From positions 1,152,001 through 1,216,000 of the forward strand of contig OZ244561.1 of assembly GCA_965217585.1 (NCBI GenBank): DNA of 64,000 bases. The letters are read 5' to 3'. A program made the translations under genes and the position numbers. Positions 5,332 through 10,831 of this stretch are shown in pieces. A model generated the notes under the pieces. It ran no database searches. It saw only the letters and a list, made by a program, of their open reading frames with translations, and was not told where the DNA came from. Positions within the stretch are counted from its first letter, which is position 1. The number at the start of each line of letters is the position of its first letter. The stretch is from Candidatus Latescibacterota bacterium. Its GTDB lineage: Bacteria > Latescibacterota > UBA2968 > UBA8231.

Positions 5332-6483
5332 TCACCAAGAGCTGGATTTTGATGTATGGACGTGGTCGGGCATCTTGTAACTCACTCCATCCTCGTCGTA
5401 CACCGAGATGTCGAGAAGCTGAGAAAAATTTTCTGATCTGAGCACCTGTTTGGCCTTTAGAAGCCTCAGGAAGCGTTGTTTCCATCGGTAACTAAACAGT
5501 GTTCCCGCAGCAAAGGACTTTGGAAACTCGAACTGGTCAGCGAGTTCGTTTCCTATGAGGGCGCGCGAAAGGCGGTAGGCCAGAGTTGTCAATTTTTTCT
5601 GTTCAACAGGATCTGTTACATCCGCAACTGTCGGAATGGCCTGGATCAACATATTCGCCACGGTTACCGATTCGGGCGACGCCGGCGGCTCGCACATATA
5701 GGCGATCTTGTAAATTTTTTCCGCATCTTCTGCGTTGGTATAGAGGATGGTCTCAGGTATCCCCATGAGATAGCCGCTGTAGCGCCAAACACTGAGAACA
5801 CTCGCTTTTTCTTCCTCGTTGAAATTCGCGCCCACCAACATCGAGTAGTTCAACAGGCGCTTGGAGAAGACGGAGATGGCAAAACCAAGGTGCGCCGAGC
5901 TTATCGGTATGCCCCAAGCATCGTGATCCCAATCGTCGGATTTCGCCAGCAGGGTCCTCATTTGACTATGGACGAAGCGAATGCGCGTGGATAGCCTGTA
6001 CCCATCGCCATCTCTCCGCAAGCCGCCGGGGTAAAAAATATCCATCATGTGGCGGTTATTCTGCTGGAGGCGCCTTTTGGTTGACGCTACCCGCCCGGTA
6101 ATATTGAACGACTTGGCGATAAGCGTCGAAAAGCCTTCCACCAACACCCCTGTAACGAATGCGACGAGCATGAGGTCTACGTTTGCGTGGAAGGCGCGTC
6201 TCCCCGGACGAAAGGCTTCGTAGTCGAGCCAAGGAGGCTCTGCAAGATTTTTGAAGAAATCGCGCAGGGCCTGCGGCACCTGGCGCAGAACCTCATCCTG
6301 TTGCTCTATGCCAGCCCCGATGAAGCGGTGCAGGTCCTCACTCGGCAACGAGGAGAGTTCCTCCATCACCGGATCCAGCTCTGGGTCGCCAATGGAGATA
6401 TGCCTAGCATAGTTGTCGGCCGCTTCTTGGTCGTAGAGGCGGGCCTGCTCATAACCCTCGGTGTATGCTGAAGGTAGTTTCAT
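5332..6483 (-). CDS. MpaB/rubber-oxygenase (DUF2236-like) family oxygenase
   Basis: IRFVHSQMR, WGIPISSAHL and VWRYSGYLMGIP motifs; start placed at MKLPSAY after AAGAGGAG RBS. Confidence 0.8.
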   Translation of the reverse strand: MKLPSAYTEGYEQARLYDQEAADNYARHISIGDPELDPVMEELSSLPSEDLHRFIGAGIEQQDEVLRQVPQALRDFFKNLAEPPWLDYEAFRPGRRAFHANVDLMLVAFVTGVLVEGFSTLIAKSFNITGRVASTKRRLQQNNRHMMDIFYPGGLRRDGDGYRLSTRIRFVHSQMRTLLAKSDDWDHDAWGIPISSAHLGFAISVFSKRLLNYSMLVGANFNEEEKASVLSVWRYSGYLMGIPETILYTNAEDAEKIYKIAYMCEPPASPESVTVANMLIQAIPTVADVTDPVEQKKLTTLAYRLSRALIGNELADQFEFPKSFAAGTLFSYRWKQRFLRLLKAKQVLRSENFSQLLDISVYDEDGVSYKMPDHVHTSKSSSW

Positions 6484-6521
6484 TTTCGATCTCCTCTTTG
6501 GGTAGTGGTTGCGTTTGAAAT

Positions 6522-6887
6522 TTATGGTCGAAGCTGGTGCTGGTGGGAGACGGCGACTTTTCCTGCACTTGGGAGCCATGCGCCAACCGCCAAGGAGTAC
6601 GAACCCGTCGTCGAAGAAGAAAGTCCTCTCACTTTCACGTAGTACGTCCCGGCTTCTACGCGAGCTTCGACGAAGAAGCCAGGGGCGTTGTATAGGCCGT
6701 CGTCATTTTCTGAGAGCACTTGGCCGACGGATTGGGGTTGGCCGGCCACGCACTTATAGGTCGCGCCGTTGATCTCAACGGTTTCCCACGGGCCAGCCTC
6801 CTCGTCAAAAGCAGCTTAGGCCGTGGGCTTGTCTTGCGAGCAGGACAAGACAGAAAGTAGAGGGAGGACTACGGCGAGACGGAGCAT
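6522..6887 (-). pseudogene. Lipoprotein with pre-peptidase C-terminal (PPC)-like domain; in-frame TAA at codon 24
   Basis: MLRLAVVLPLLSVLSC lipobox; TAA at 6816-6818; the same frame continues to ENDDG...EAGTYYVKVRG...TTGSYSL; GAGGAG RBS. Confidence 0.7.
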
Positions 6888-6901
6888 GGCGCATCTCCTC
6901 G

Positions 6902-6946
6902 AAAAAGGTGGACAAAAGGCCCCCGAAGGGGCCGGGCCTTGTCCAC
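6902..6946 (-). terminator. Intrinsic terminator-like hairpin upstream of the lipoprotein RBS
   Basis: GUGGACAA...GGCCCC-UUCG-GGGGCC...UUGUCCAC followed by CUUUUU. Confidence 0.6.
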
Positions 6947-7075
6947 GTATGCGCAGAAAGATGCGACACGTTCTACTTATTCACCGAGGCGGAAGGGAGC
7001 TACCCTTCGCCGGGTCTGGGCTGTTGTATTTAGCAGAAGACCCGACGTAAGTCGGGATTCTACGCATACATGGAC
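6902..7075 (-). ncRNA. Candidate structured leader RNA (riboswitch/attenuator-like)
   Basis: 18-bp helix 7058-7075/6941-6958 whose two mismatches become G-U pairs on the minus strand; internal hairpins; overlapping terminator hairpin 6908-6946 followed by U5. Confidence 0.55.
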
Positions 7076-7081
7076 GCCCAT

Positions 7082-7111
7082 AGGATACGTTATAAGAGAG
7101 CCGCCGGTCAA
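7082..7111 (-). promoter_or_regulatory. Candidate sigma70 promoter TTGACC-N18-TATCCT
   Basis: Would start transcription at about 7075, exactly at the 5' strand of the leader helix. Confidence 0.5.
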
Positions 7112-7217
7112 GCAAAGAGCAAAATCGGTAGTGGTCTATTTTGAAATCTTGCGGTAGGTCTTGGGACGGCACGGCTTGGGTATCGCGTTATCCAGGTGTA
7201 CCGCCAAGCGTGAAAAC

Positions 7218-7415
7218 ATGAACATATTTGCCGCGTTATTGCTTGGGGCGGTTGTACTGTTGGTATGCGCTTGGATCTGCCACGAGACGGGCAAGAAAAC
7301 GGCGGCTAAATGGCTGTTGGGCCTTGGGATCGGTGCGTTGTGGCTGTTGTGGGCCTTGGTTAAAGCGATCTTTGGGTGGATGAAAGACGCAGAGAAAAGA
7401 CGCAGGAACGACTAG
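7218..7415 (+). CDS. Small two-TM membrane protein (cargo of the element)
   Basis: MNIFAALLLGAVVLLVCAWIC...WLLGLGIGALWLLWALVKAIFGW; lies between IR copies at 7127 and 7530. Confidence 0.55.
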   Translation: MNIFAALLLGAVVLLVCAWICHETGKKTAAKWLLGLGIGALWLLWALVKAIFGWMKDAEKRRRND

Positions 7416-7574
7416 GGATCAGACCTATACGCATGGCCGAGTTCGCCGCGATGAGGTCTTTGCTCTGTTGGTTGGGCGTATCTCAAAGATGAAGGCTAAT
7501 GCGGCTTGAATTTCAAAATAGACCACTACCCCTCTTTGGGAGTCAGCAATATACCAGCGTCCAACTTCAAAGCC

Positions 7575-7604
7575 ACATTAATATACTATAATAAAGATTG
7601 TCAA
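7575..7604 (-). promoter_or_regulatory. Candidate native promoter of the oxygenase-MMPL operon
   Basis: Perfect TTGACA (7599-7604, minus strand) followed by an AT-rich -10 region, just outside the right target duplication. Confidence 0.45.
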
Positions 7605-7615
7605 TTATCCTACTC

Positions 7616-8893
7616 TCACACGAACTTCGGCCGGCCACAGCCGTCGTTGACCACGTAGCTGCGCGCTGGAATCGCCGCTTGCTCGGGAATGACTAAGTCG
7701 AGCGGCGAATCATTCTCAATGACGGTACCGGCCCCCACGCGCACCCCGGCCCCCAACTTAATCGCTCCAGGCCGCACAGGACCCGCTATGATCGTGCCGA
7801 TAGATACCGACACGCCGATCCGGCAATCCGGGCCGATCGCGACGATGCCGTTGATTTCGGAGTTGGCCCCAATCGCCGTGCGGTCGCCCACCTGCACCGG
7901 GCCGAAAAGCCCGGCATCCGTGCCGATAAACACGTAGTCGCCAATGGTGGGATGGCGCTGCTGCACCTTGCCGCTGAGGCCGCCCAAAGTACACGGGTAC
8001 ATGTGGCAGCCGCTGCCGATGATACCCGTCTGTCCAGTGGTTATGCCGCGATGGGGGTGGTCGAGGAAATTGGCATCGCCAATCTGCGTTTCGGGATGGA
8101 TATCCGCCTGGTAGTAGCGCCCCCCCAACTCGGCAATGGCTCGCGGCAGCAAGGGCACCGGCCGCCGCTTCAGCCCGGATTCGCCTGCCACCGAGCCAGA
8201 GCGCGTTAGGGCGTGGGCAATGTCGTGGTAAAACAACACCCGCCAGCCCGGATAGGTGCTCATCACGAGCTGCATCTGGTAGTCGAAAATGAAGTCGCAC
8301 TCCAGTGCGGCGAGGAAGCGGCGATAGTGGTCGAAGTCGCGGCGGTGAATGGTCTCGTCCAAGGCGGCCCGGAAGTCGATCTTGAGCAGCCGCTCCTGGG
8401 TCAACCCGCAATTGTCGAGCAAATAGGCGTCCCAAACGGCCGGATCCCTAAGCGCGGCAAAGCGGTTCCAGCGGGCGCGGACCTTGTAGGCGGGCAATTC
8501 CCACAGCAAACAGAAGGTATTCATCAGAGCCTTCTCTTCAGCACCTTCGCTCTCGCCGGCCGCCGAAAGCGACTGCGCGATCATCGCGTAGAGCTGGTCG
8601 GCAATCTCGCCGATGGCCTCGTCGAGCGACGGGTTTTGGTGCCCCGGCCCCAAGGCATTGTGCGAACCAGGGGCGACACATTCGAGCAAGTTGCCCAAAA
8701 CCGTCTCCAGCAGGTCGCGGTCGACAAACCCGCGCCCGGAGCGCTGCGAGAGAATGTCCCGGTCCACCGCGTCGATGCGGAGCGCGGCGACCTCCTCCGA
8801 GGTGTAGATCGGCATCAGCCGCTCTAGCAGCCGCTCTAGCAACGCCCACTTGCGGCGTTGATACGCAGTGTCGAAAAGCGTGGAATTGTTCAT
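7616..8893 (-). CDS. Serine O-acetyltransferase-like protein (left-handed beta-helix) with long N-terminal extension
   Basis: ADIHPETQIG..FLDH, TLGG...RHPTIGDYVFIG and hexapeptide repeats; start at MNNSTLF after GGGGAG. Confidence 0.7.
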   Translation of the reverse strand: MNNSTLFDTAYQRRKWALLERLLERLMPIYTSEEVAALRIDAVDRDILSQRSGRGFVDRDLLETVLGNLLECVAPGSHNALGPGHQNPSLDEAIGEIADQLYAMIAQSLSAAGESEGAEEKALMNTFCLLWELPAYKVRARWNRFAALRDPAVWDAYLLDNCGLTQERLLKIDFRAALDETIHRRDFDHYRRFLAALECDFIFDYQMQLVMSTYPGWRVLFYHDIAHALTRSGSVAGESGLKRRPVPLLPRAIAELGGRYYQADIHPETQIGDANFLDHPHRGITTGQTGIIGSGCHMYPCTLGGLSGKVQQRHPTIGDYVFIGTDAGLFGPVQVGDRTAIGANSEINGIVAIGPDCRIGVSVSIGTIIAGPVRPGAIKLGAGVRVGAGTVIENDSPLDLVIPEQAAIPARSYVVNDGCGRPKFV

Positions 8894-8987: not shown

Positions 8988-9773
8988 ATGCATCCATTTG
9001 AATCACTGGTAGTACGCGAAGGTGCCATTGGCATCCACTGGTTTGGCCAGAGCACGTTTGGCCTCAAGGACGCGCAGGGGACCATCGTCCAAGTCGATCC
9101 CTACTATCCCCACGAGCGGCCAGCCGACCGCTTCATCCACGCCCGCCCCCCGCTCCACGAGGCGTCGCTACACACGGATTTCGTGCTCCTGACCCACGAC
9201 CACGGCGACCACACGTGCGTGGAGTCCATTGCGCGCATTGCCGCTGCCTATCCAGCCGTGCAGATCGTCGGCCCGGCGGAGAGCATCCAGCGCGTCCGCA
9301 GCGCGGGCATTACTGCCGCCGCAACCACAGTTGCCGCTGGTGACGCAGCCAAACTGGGCACCATGACGGCCCACGCGGTGTACGCCAAACCCCCGGAGGG
9401 CCTGCCCAGCGACGACATCGCTCCGCCCGATGTGACCCACCTCGGCTACGTGGTAGAGACCAGCAGCGTGCGCGTATACATCTCCGGCGATCCAGTCAAC
9501 ACTTTTGCCGAGCACGAAGAATTACTCGCGCCCATCCGCGACCTCGGGCCCGACATCGGGCTGTTGACCAATCACCCCAGCGAAGGGGAATTCCCCTTCT
9601 TTGCTGGCTCGTCCAAGATGGCCTCGGTGCTCGGCCTCAAGGCCGCCGTACCGGCCCATTACGCCTGCTTTGTCAGCCGAAATTACGATCCCCAAGAATG
9701 GGCCGCCGTGCTCGATGGGGTCGAGCCGCTGATCATCCCGTACAATCAGTCCGCGGTCTATGCGGCCCGCTAG
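8988..9773 (+). CDS. MBL-fold metallo-hydrolase (UlaG-like)
   Basis: WFGQS, THDHGDH, YISGD and VPAHY motifs. Confidence 0.88.
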   Translation: MHPFESLVVREGAIGIHWFGQSTFGLKDAQGTIVQVDPYYPHERPADRFIHARPPLHEASLHTDFVLLTHDHGDHTCVESIARIAAAYPAVQIVGPAESIQRVRSAGITAAATTVAAGDAAKLGTMTAHAVYAKPPEGLPSDDIAPPDVTHLGYVVETSSVRVYISGDPVNTFAEHEELLAPIRDLGPDIGLLTNHPSEGEFPFFAGSSKMASVLGLKAAVPAHYACFVSRNYDPQEWAAVLDGVEPLIIPYNQSAVYAAR

Positions 9774-9883: not shown

Positions 9884-10831
9884 ATGCGGCGATTCACAAT
9901 CGCAGGCATTTTCGGCCTCGCCCTCGTAGGGGTGGCGAATGCCCAGTTTTTCGATCCGCCCGCTCTGGAGGATCGCAATGGCAGTCAGGGATTTTGGTTT
10001 TACATGCTCGAAGTCCCCGATCCCGGTGCTATCACCATCGACGGGCATAGCGACGACTGGGGTTGGTTCGACCCCGAATACACCTTGACCATGGACGAGT
10101 GGCGCGACGAAGGCGACCGCCCGGCCCCAGACCGCGACGACCTGTTCATCACCACCTTCATGGGCTGGAAGGGCGGCGACGACAACCGCTGGTACTGCTT
10201 CTTGGAAGCGGTTGACGACGTGCTAGCGCACGCCGGCACGAACATCGCCCGTTGGGACGGCGACATGCTACAGGTCGGCCTCGATCCGCAGGATCACGGG
10301 CGCGAGCGCAGCCCGGCTTCGGGTTACACCATGGAGTGGCTGATGGCACCGGGCGACCTCAGTCCGCCGACCAACGTCGCTTTCCGCTATACCGAGCAAG
10401 AGGCGTGGGCCGAGTACGGCGAATCGCCGTGGATCGAAATGGCCGTGCGCGTCGATCCGCCCGAAGCTTGGGCCGCCGACCTGTGGGCCGAGGGCGGCAC
10501 CACGTACTACGAGTGGAGCGTCAAGGTCCTCGCCTTCCAAGATGATACAGGTCCGTCGGCGAGCGAGGTGTGGCAGCTAGACACAGTGGCCGGTGAAGAT
10601 GGCGCGGGCATGCCTTTCGCCTTTTGGTACGAAGACGGCGAAGGCCCGGATTCGAGCTTCTCGCCCAGCGAAGACGGCACCCCGGGTGGCCGCAACGACT
10701 GGACCACCCGCGGCCCCGAAGCCTCGGCGCGGCAGTACTACTCCATTGCCAAGCTGCTGCGCGTCGGCGAGTACGCCGCCGCCACAGCAGTCGAGTCATC
10801 GACTTGGGGCAAGATCAAGAACTCGTTCTAA
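9884..10831 (+). CDS. Secreted acidic protein, CBM9/DOMON-like, with C-terminal AVESSTWGKIK motif
   Basis: Signal peptide; ITIDGHSDDW and YYEWSV resemble CBM9-like domains; ends ATAVESSTWGKIKNSF. Confidence 0.65.
   Translation: MRRFTIAGIFGLALVGVANAQFFDPPALEDRNGSQGFWFYMLEVPDPGAITIDGHSDDWGWFDPEYTLTMDEWRDEGDRPAPDRDDLFITTFMGWKGGDDNRWYCFLEAVDDVLAHAGTNIARWDGDMLQVGLDPQDHGRERSPASGYTMEWLMAPGDLSPPTNVAFRYTEQEAWAEYGESPWIEMAVRVDPPEAWAADLWAEGGTTYYEWSVKVLAFQDDTGPSASEVWQLDTVAGEDGAGMPFAFWYEDGEGPDSSFSPSEDGTPGGRNDWTTRGPEASARQYYSIAKLLRVGEYAAATAVESSTWGKIKNSF

Follow-up and report, generated by a model that had tools for sequence, protein, structure and literature searches.

A previously undescribed family of structured leader RNAs, probably riboswitch-like, with a member ahead of a lipoprotein-type gene in a Candidatus Latescibacterota contig

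The window analysed here is a stretch of 64,000 nucleotides (nt) from contig OZ244561.1 of a Candidatus Latescibacterota bacterium. On its minus strand, at 6928–7077, it carries an RNA element located directly behind a sigma-70-like promoter and ahead of a lipoprotein-type open reading frame (ORF); all numbering refers to the 64,000-nt stretch and the RNA is read on the minus strand. This RNA is a member of a previously undescribed family of structured RNAs, and we propose that the family probably consists of promoter-proximal leaders which act in cis, as riboswitch-like translational switches, on the gene behind them. A conserved covarying domain with conserved unpaired nucleotides, a position in the 5' untranslated region (UTR) and the orientation of the genes are features which the family shares with riboswitches. 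The initial annotation of this DNA had described an RNA-level element on the minus strand, right behind a promoter, ahead of the lipoprotein ORF and riboswitch-like in its architecture. That description stands, and the promoter, helices, inner hairpins and 3' hairpin which it named are all present on the minus strand at the positions given below.

Searches of the whole window with the 4227 models of Rfam 15 at their gathering thresholds returned no matches. When the region 6500–7500 was searched at E ≤ 10, five chance-level matches were obtained (microRNA [miRNA], small nucleolar RNA, U6atac and PhotoRC-I), all far below gathering. Among 20 homologous loci screened at E ≤ 0.1 there were six matches, none within the motif: five to miRNA models at 120–225 of locus L106, where the motif occupies 367–502, and one transfer-messenger RNA fragment at 1–50 of locus L143, where the motif occupies 260–398. 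Since no Rfam 15 model matches, the novelty claim of the initial annotation, which had not recognized the family, survives. A literature search covering titles and abstract openings, with subscription journals and supplements outside its scope, produced no description of this RNA.

The family was defined with covariance model R1, which has 145 positions and 34 pairs and was built from a 44-sequence MAFFT alignment. In the 64-kb window it has one match only (108.1 bits, E = 1e-21), which spans all 145 model positions. The promoter upstream is composed of TTGACC (7111–7106), an 18-nt spacer and TATCCT (7087–7082), and it is the sole sigma-70-like site located by a consensus scan of 6000–8000, where 0.8 sites are expected by chance. 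The predicted transcription start, at approximately 7075, coincides with the first base of the closing helix, P1. This helix comprises 18 bp between a 5' strand, GUCCAUGUAUGCGUAGAA (7075–7058, "a"), and a 3' strand, UUCUGCGCAUACGUGGAC (6958–6941, "a prime"). Two of its pairs are G.U and exist on the minus strand only; these are the two mismatches which had been reported to become G-U pairs on that strand. The minimum free energy (MFE) of the 186-nt window RNA is -87.2 kcal/mol, compared with -59.2 ± 4.3 kcal/mol for 200 dinucleotide shuffles (z = -6.6), none of which was as good.

Across the family the parts follow one another, 5' to 3', in the order P1 5' strand, a C-rich stretch (b), box c (GUCGGGU), P3, P4, a junction, P5, a linker, the P1 3' strand and box c prime (GCCCGGC). 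P1 is a closing helix of 15–19 bp, the sequence of which differs from copy to copy while the pairing is kept. Stretch b and box c can form a weak hairpin, P2, represented in the window by CCCGAC (7056–7051), the loop UUAC and GUCGGGU (7046–7040). The latter is a nearly invariant box that doubles as the 5' strand of a candidate pseudoknot. P3 has the consensus CCUGCU paired with GGCAGG and is broken by a conserved internal loop, GAAUACAAY opposite GAAUAG; P4 is formed by AGCC with GGY. In the window copy the P3 5' strand (7037–7032), the internal-loop strand AAAUACAAC (7031–7023), which corresponds to the GAAUACAAY consensus, and the P4 5' strand AGCC (7022–7019) make up a region, 7019–7037, with invariant or nearly invariant columns. 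Their counterparts are the P4 3' strand GGU (6985–6983), the loop strand GAAUA (6982–6978) and the P3 3' strand AGUAGA (6977–6972). A variable junction precedes P5, which is typically GGG-UAGCU-CCC plus further pairs and which in the window consists of GGCGAAGGG, the loop UAGCU and CCCUUCCGCC (7011–6988).

Box c prime, 3–5 bases past P1, is nearly invariant and opens a stable 3' hairpin, and the ribosome-binding site (RBS) and start codon are found about 40–60 nt beyond it. In the window GCCCGGC (6937–6931) begins three bases past P1 and its last three bases also open the hairpin GGCCCC-UUCG-GGGGCC (6933–6918), followed by UUUU, GUCCAC (6913–6908), C and UUUUU (6906–6902); with its U-tracts, this hairpin is terminator-like in the window copy. 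Next come the RBS GAGGAG (6900–6895), AUGCGC (6894–6889) and the start codon AUG (6887–6885). GUCGGGU follows the start of P1 at a median of 26 nt (range 20–31), the P3–P5 domain has a median length of 69 nt, and some 40 invariant or nearly invariant unpaired nucleotides are kept across phyla. The P5 loop contains a self-complementary 4-mer in 52 of the 75 distinct members (AGCU in 41, GGCC in seven, and CGCG, GAUC and CAUG in one each). The pattern is broken in the remaining 23, of which 17 have UCGCU; the loop of the window copy lies at 7002–6998. From their sequence, such 4-mers could permit loop–loop dimerization.

Covariation supports this architecture, which dozens of homologues share despite unrelated helix sequences, in alignments of two kinds and in an alignment-free test. 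In a MAFFT alignment made independently of the structure, 74.2% of the cells were paired, against 68.4% in column shuffles (0 of 500 reached the observed value) and 38–50% when the partners were slid. In the model-fitted alignment, which holds 78 matches representing 75 distinct sequences, pairing was 89.7% against 71.7% in the shuffles (again 0 of 500) and 37–47% with slid partners, and two-sided changes were found in 419 cells as compared with 121 in the shuffles. By helix, pairing in the latter alignment was 97.3% for outer P1, 73.2% for inner P1, 76.6% for P2, 96.4% for P3, 98.2% for P4 and 88–93% for the segments of P5. Each column of outer P1 shows four to six pair types; compensatory changes are present in P3 and P4, and two-sided changes in the P5 helices. 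Using 51 representatives, the mean energy of the cognate P1 duplex was -29.3 kcal/mol, compared with -14.7 kcal/mol for non-cognate duplexes, and in 38 of the 51 the cognate strand was the best P1 partner. Covariation among homologues, which had been suggested as a check on the element, is thus strong both in the model-fitted alignment and in the alignment-free test of P1. Among 2457 cells we counted 255 G.U and 56 A.C combinations. This excess shows that the strand which folds is the one read from the promoter side, and it excludes a DNA palindrome.

Boxes GUCGGGU and GCCCGGC are complementary over seven positions. Their pairing is retained in 99.7% of the cells of alignment A2 and in 98.6–98.9% of those of alignment A3, and RNAalifold picked this helix unprompted. 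Because it crosses P1, it would constitute a pseudoknot if both coexist, and on the strength of these sequences a GUCGGGU:GCCCGGC pseudoknot is likely in the family. It would compete with the 3' hairpin, since GCCCGGC is shared between the two. A stable 3' hairpin is present in 73 of 74 members, some of which use a downstream CCGGG-type copy of box c. A terminator-like tail, defined as at least five U in the 8 nt past the hairpin, was found in only two of the 74, so that the window copy is atypical. Two other partners for GUCGGGU were rejected. The alternative helix GUCGGGUCU/AGACCCGGC (CGGGUCU/AGACCCG) of the initial annotation is present and forms part of the MFE fold of the window copy, but its 3' partner is not conserved across the family, in which the conserved partner is GCCCGGC. 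The other candidate, a second box of the CCCGCAU type ahead of the P1 3' strand, is lacking from many members, the window copy among them.

The position of the element is that of a leader. A site of the form TTGnnn-N16-19-TAnnnT ends -2 to 12 nt from the model start in 53 of the 75 members, and in 53 of 75 a same-strand ORF start, called by a simple rule, lies 14–80 nt past the model 3' end (median 50 nt, with a cluster at 38–58 nt). The P1 3' strand, moreover, has a candidate alternative partner in this interval. In the window GUCCAC (6913–6908) repeats the beginning of the P1 5' strand and complements GUGGAC at the end of the closing helix, as had been noticed in the initial annotation, and AUGCGC (6894–6889) is complementary to GCGCAU within the P1 3' strand. 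Pairing between the P1 3' strand and the downstream region averaged -16.8 kcal/mol for a member's own region and -14.0 kcal/mol for foreign ones, and in 13 of 51 members, where about 2.5 would be expected, the own region fell in the top 5% of the non-cognate controls. In the clear cases the paired stretch crosses the Shine-Dalgarno (SD) sequence; at its inner end the P1 3' strand has an anti-SD stretch of the CUCU or CCUC type, and the P1 5' strand an SD-like GCAGAG.

For the window copy, the predicted probability that the AUG is unpaired is 0.65–0.69 with P1 formed and 0.01 in an RNA whose P1 5' strand has lost its first 12 nt; blocking the P1 5' strand led to the same extended pairing across the start region. 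Since the 3' hairpin is almost never a terminator, and since the competing structure, where there is one, buries the RBS or start codon, the element is better viewed as a translational leader than as an attenuator or a terminated small RNA. The transcription attenuator or terminated RNA of about 175 nt that had originally been considered is not borne out by the family, in which two of 74 copies have a terminator-like tail by our crude criterion. A conserved leader peptide was also considered and rejected: all ORFs that span the element either begin within the promoter or run through covarying helices.

Four RNA-library runs from one study, labelled as sponge metagenome, hold the stretch. Their assembled contigs are 155–261 nt in length and cover 6803–7063, 6869–7102, 6888–7063 and 6909–7063, and in these four runs no contig covers any other part of 6341–7500. 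A transcript had been expected with ends near 7075 and 6902. The contigs do cover the element; its ends are met only roughly, by contig ends at 7063 (three runs) or 7102 (one run) on one side and at 6909, 6888, 6869 and 6803 on the other. All four runs have G for A at 6977, which changes AUAAG to the family consensus AUAGG. A further contig matches the conserved core only and then diverges, as expected of another expressed family member. Three of the four contigs end exactly at 7063, which is 12 nt into the P1 5' strand and opposite an internal loop of other members with a conserved GCGUGA on its 3' side. Processing of the RNA could account for this, as could a break in the assembly at a strain variant.

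We envisage that the switch would work through three strands. When the P1 3' strand, often with its anti-SD stretch, pairs with the P1 5' strand, the ribosome site would be left free and the gene would be ON. When it pairs instead with the downstream imitation of the 5' strand, including the RBS or start codon, the gene would be OFF. The conserved core, together with the GUCGGGU:GCCCGGC pseudoknot, may serve as the sensor deciding how firmly P1 is held. In the window copy, where the P1 3' strand could pair with GUCCAC (6913–6908) and AUGCGC (6894–6889), the OFF structure would also be terminator-like, and the gene presumably controlled is a lipoprotein gene with an in-frame stop.

Several points weigh against this proposal. 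The downstream complementarity is clear in only about a quarter of the members, the window copy having rank 7 of 50. The stability of P1 far exceeds that of the alternative, the cognate duplexes ranging from -19.5 to -37.3 kcal/mol; by these calculations P1 should always beat the downstream pairing, and its opening would need a trigger which the proposal does not supply. Changes in the candidate pseudoknot are one-sided (U.G, U-A and C-G at two positions) with no compensatory pair, so that the argument for it lies in conserved complementarity. With P1 formed, its linker of 8–12 nt must run back along a P1 of about 17 bp, which could be feasible by reasoning; the narrow distribution of P1 lengths fits such a linker-along-P1 "ruler". 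P2 is weak, with 76.6% pairing. Alignment A3 was fitted to the structure and leans towards it, and, as the sequences are related, the shuffle controls overstate significance. The RNA contigs derive from a single study and give no information on strand or genuine ends, and DNA may be present in an RNA library; we regard them as a hint of abundance and not as a transcript map. Lastly, the Pfam content of 148 downstream ORFs is heterogeneous and reveals no coherent gene function.

Among the products of these ORFs are proteins with leucine-rich repeats (LRR), WD40, dockerin, immunoglobulin, collagen-repeat, NHL and lamin-tail domains, leishmanolysin-like and subtilase peptidases, and an orthologous set of Rce1-like proteases. 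Others encode an outer-membrane barrel, tRNA_anti-like proteins, BtrH_N-like proteins with Yip1 and HlyD partners, a MunI-type restriction enzyme, dynamin-like GTPases, DUF1232, a superinfection-immunity protein and several transposases. No recurring neighbour protein was found as a partner, either upstream or downstream. What the first downstream ORFs do share is a tendency towards export: with a crude rule, a hydrophobic N-terminus was assigned to 45 of 69, compared with 1255 of 3525 long ORFs of the genome to which the window belongs, and a lipobox to 18 of 69, compared with 155 of 3525, although the relatedness of the sequences means that the significance of these enrichments is overstated. 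As there is no shared pathway downstream, a pathway-specific metabolite riboswitch is unlikely. The input would most likely be a small molecule or ion of global meaning, for example a second messenger or a host-derived compound, and less likely a protein; a global signal fits genes without a common pathway better than a metabolite does.

The arrangement has partial parallels among known leaders. The add adenine riboswitch of Vibrio vulnificus is a translational ON switch with a 5'-UTR aptamer closed by P1, the 3' strand of which alternatively pairs with the ribosome-binding region. Some members of our family would follow the same three-strand logic, in which P1 formed would mean gene on. The family has neither sequence nor fold similarity to add, however, its P1 is much longer (15–19 bp against a few), its core and a conserved box past P1 make up a candidate pseudoknot, and its downstream genes share no pathway. 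The c-di-GMP-I (GEMM) riboswitch occurs in many copies per genome ahead of heterogeneous genes, often for secreted or surface proteins. This resembles the 1–14 copies per genome and the enrichment of exported proteins seen here, whereas the architecture and conserved nucleotides are unrelated. The 5' UTR of Escherichia coli rpoS is an anti-antisense leader, closed by default and opened by trans-acting small RNAs. As in rpoS, an upstream strand and the ribosome-site region of family members would compete for pairing and one helix would set translation, but in the family the default predicted state is open and the helix encloses a conserved core of 110 nt.

The family is not confined to this genome. 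BLAST and nhmmer located further copies in the 7.32-Mb genome to which the window belongs, and R1 gave six matches there, four at 108–114 bits and two at 45–47 bits. Two weak nhmmer matches at genome positions 9177–9238 and 10249–10359 were dropped as chance, the DNA looking coding by eye, and a degenerate copy at 7306157–7306230 was left out of the alignments. BLAST matches were found in 30 of 41 related genomes. Of 151 genomes sampled from the phylum, 62 had R1 matches, at 1–14 copies each, and these were concentrated in three families (24 of 63, 19 of 30 and 17 of 19 genomes) and in the single searched genome of a fourth; the other ten families of the phylum that were searched had no R1 matches.

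An exact 17-mer of the conserved core occurs at 120 or more loci in a collection of species-representative genomes, and among the loci listed R1 matched 31 of 100 and 10 of 20, that is 41 of 120. The record titles of listed loci with a match carry the labels Gemmatimonadota, Latescibacterota, Bryobacterales, Terriglobia, Vicinamibacteraceae, Chloroflexota, Alphaproteobacteria, Gammaproteobacteria, Binatia, Nitrospirales and Longimicrobiales. The phylum labels of the closest relatives have to be read with care, as a relative of the same class is titled Latescibacteria and one of the same genus Gemmatimonadetes. Among the matches listed, none of those with titles is from a cultured strain; 40 of the 120 loci are without titles. 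The whole genomes behind five listed loci hold 6, 4, 3, 1 and 7 copies, of which, by genome title, six are in Alphaproteobacteria, four in Bryobacterales, seven in Gammaproteobacteria and one in Chloroflexota; one of the five genomes is the same-class relative titled Latescibacteria. The spread is patchy, with matches in 5 of 23 genomes of one alphaproteobacterial order and 13 of 101 genomes of one acidobacterial class. When 241 million metagenome records were scanned with a 23-mer, just 21 matches were obtained, none with a habitat label, which hints at a narrow distribution and proves nothing. Tandem family members were observed in locus L197 (3001–3148 and 5091–5238), and pairs of matches 0.5–5 kb apart in genomes G108 and G036; each tandem member has its own downstream gene or genes, which makes these small promoter-leader-gene arrays.

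In another genome the RNA-plus-gene module is clearly mobile. A genome of the same class contains four copies, 100% identical over 2766–2768 bp, of a 2.77-kb transposon (L189, 2538–5303, and L190, L191 and L192). Its transposase matches PF03400 (IS1 transposase), and its cargo consists of a 71-amino acid lysine/arginine-rich protein, the promoter with the leader RNA, and a 210-amino acid signal-peptide protein. In the window, the initial annotation had placed the RNA on a mobile cassette. Perfect 21-bp inverted repeats (7127–7147 and 7510–7530) bound a 404-bp element resembling a miniature inverted-repeat transposable element (MITE) just upstream of the RNA promoter (7127–7530). It contains an 84-amino acid membrane-protein frame on the plus strand (7161–7415) and, on the other strand, a short frame ending in a peptide like the C-terminus of the L189 transposase (IS1-type, PF03400), and its end resembles the end of the L189 transposon. 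Since the -35 box of the RNA promoter lies 15 bp outside this element, cassette carriage is not shown for the window copy. We also considered a guide or bridge RNA of the IS110 kind, or another component of the end of an insertion sequence (IS); a constant place beside one transposase family was not found, and the first ORFs are mostly not transposases.

The gene directly behind the window copy (6887–6522, minus strand) is a 121-codon lipoprotein-type frame which begins with the signal peptide MLRLAVVLPLLSVLSC and is interrupted by an in-frame TAA (6818–6816) after codon 23, the same frame running on for 97 more codons. Past the stop it resembles a 272-amino acid lipoprotein located behind a family member in a genome of the same genus (L019); a Pfam search with the distal part of the frame gave no match. 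As the contig covering 6803–7063 differs only at 6977 and carries the TAA, the stop is probably not an assembly error. Genes for an MpaB/Lcp-type oxygenase and an MMPL transporter lie further downstream on the same strand.

We suggest, tentatively, that the family could be a new riboswitch class, or another kind of ligand-gated switch, exchanged horizontally as a "regulon tag": one sensor with its promoter would have been placed on dozens of unrelated accessory genes (lipoproteins, secreted peptidases, eukaryotic-like repeat proteins and defence genes) in uncultured bacteria of at least seven higher-taxon labels that seemingly share a habitat, and one common signal, a second messenger or a host-derived compound, might then switch on surface and symbiosis functions community-wide. 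Orphan structured leaders conserved to this degree have repeatedly proved to be riboswitches for unsuspected signals. The present family, with its abundant compensatory changes, occurs in lineages which are almost entirely uncultured and precedes gene classes thought to mediate contact and conflict between bacteria and host (lipoproteins, peptidases, LRR, WD40 and dockerin proteins, restriction enzymes). If it does sense a ligand, it would reveal a global signal acting over accessory and surface genes and provide a handle on regulation in unculturable organisms. If it does not, it would still be a compact promoter-plus-leader module working across phyla, of relevance to horizontal gene transfer and as an expression part.

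That the element is instead a standalone small RNA appears unlikely. Such a product, of about 150–175 nt, would act in trans by pairing, or by binding or sequestering protein, and its proximity to ORFs would result from shared promoters or read-through. The U-tracts that make the 3' hairpin of the window copy terminator-like and the in-frame stop in the ORF behind it would suit this explanation, but tails of that type are limited to two of 74 members. Likewise the RNA contigs are short and centred on the element, two of the four ending near the U-tract, at 6909 and 6888, whereas the other two extend beyond it, to 6869 and 6803. Heterogeneous downstream genes are what a trans-acting RNA would allow, and the self-complementary 4-mers of 52 of the 75 P5 loops could serve in RNA–RNA contacts. 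On the other hand, a same-strand ORF start 14–80 nt downstream in 53 of 75 members, with its tight cluster at 38–58 nt, argues for action in cis, as does the subset in which the P1 3' strand is specifically complementary to its own ribosome site; furthermore, the most variable part of the RNA, P1, is base-paired and not exposed as a seed.

We attach an equally low probability to a constitutive portable expression module that senses nothing, in which the promoter is combined with a leader that stabilizes the mRNA, insulates or enhances translation, or processes itself, for instance as a self-cleaving ribozyme. The long 5'-terminal helix at the predicted transcription start, the occurrence ahead of horizontally mobile and functionally unrelated genes in several phyla, and the presence as a passenger in the 2.77-kb transposon, with its IS1-type transposase and four identical copies in one genome, are all in keeping with such a module. 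A mere stabilizer, however, would not need some 40 invariant or nearly invariant unpaired nucleotides across phyla, nor an imitation, further downstream, of the P1 5' strand which overlaps with the ribosome site. As to self-cleavage, the strand order a, c, core, a prime, c prime is that of a nested double pseudoknot, a topology also found in ribozymes like that of hepatitis delta virus (HDV), where P1 5', the second helix 5', an inner hairpin domain, P1 3' and the second helix 3' succeed one another. The 7-bp P1, the tiny P3/L3 and the catalytic J4/2 C of HDV-like ribozymes are not seen in the family, and no known ribozyme model in Rfam matches. Three of the four RNA contigs ending at 7063, within the P1 5' strand and opposite the internal loop of other members, would accord with processing, but these ends may equally be assembly breaks at a strain variant, and the fourth contig reaches 7102.

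Compared with these, the translational switch remains the reading we prefer, and a DNA-level element, in which the 18-bp inverted repeat round the core would serve as the site of a recombinase or transposase (as an invertible promoter or a MITE-like repeat), is very improbable: inverted repeats flanking a segment upstream of surface-protein genes are indeed known from phase-variable promoters, a conserved segment is flanked in this way here, and copies lie near IS elements, but the arms differ in every copy around a conserved core, the reverse of what recombinase sites show, G.U pairs preserve the pairing on just one of the strands (255 G.U against 56 A.C), the inner helices P3–P5 covary as well, the promoter lies outside the repeat and RNA contigs cover the element.

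Elsewhere in the window, at 485–722, we observed direct repeats in frame, their starts 21, 33 and 54 nt apart, which probably lie within a repeat-rich coding region.

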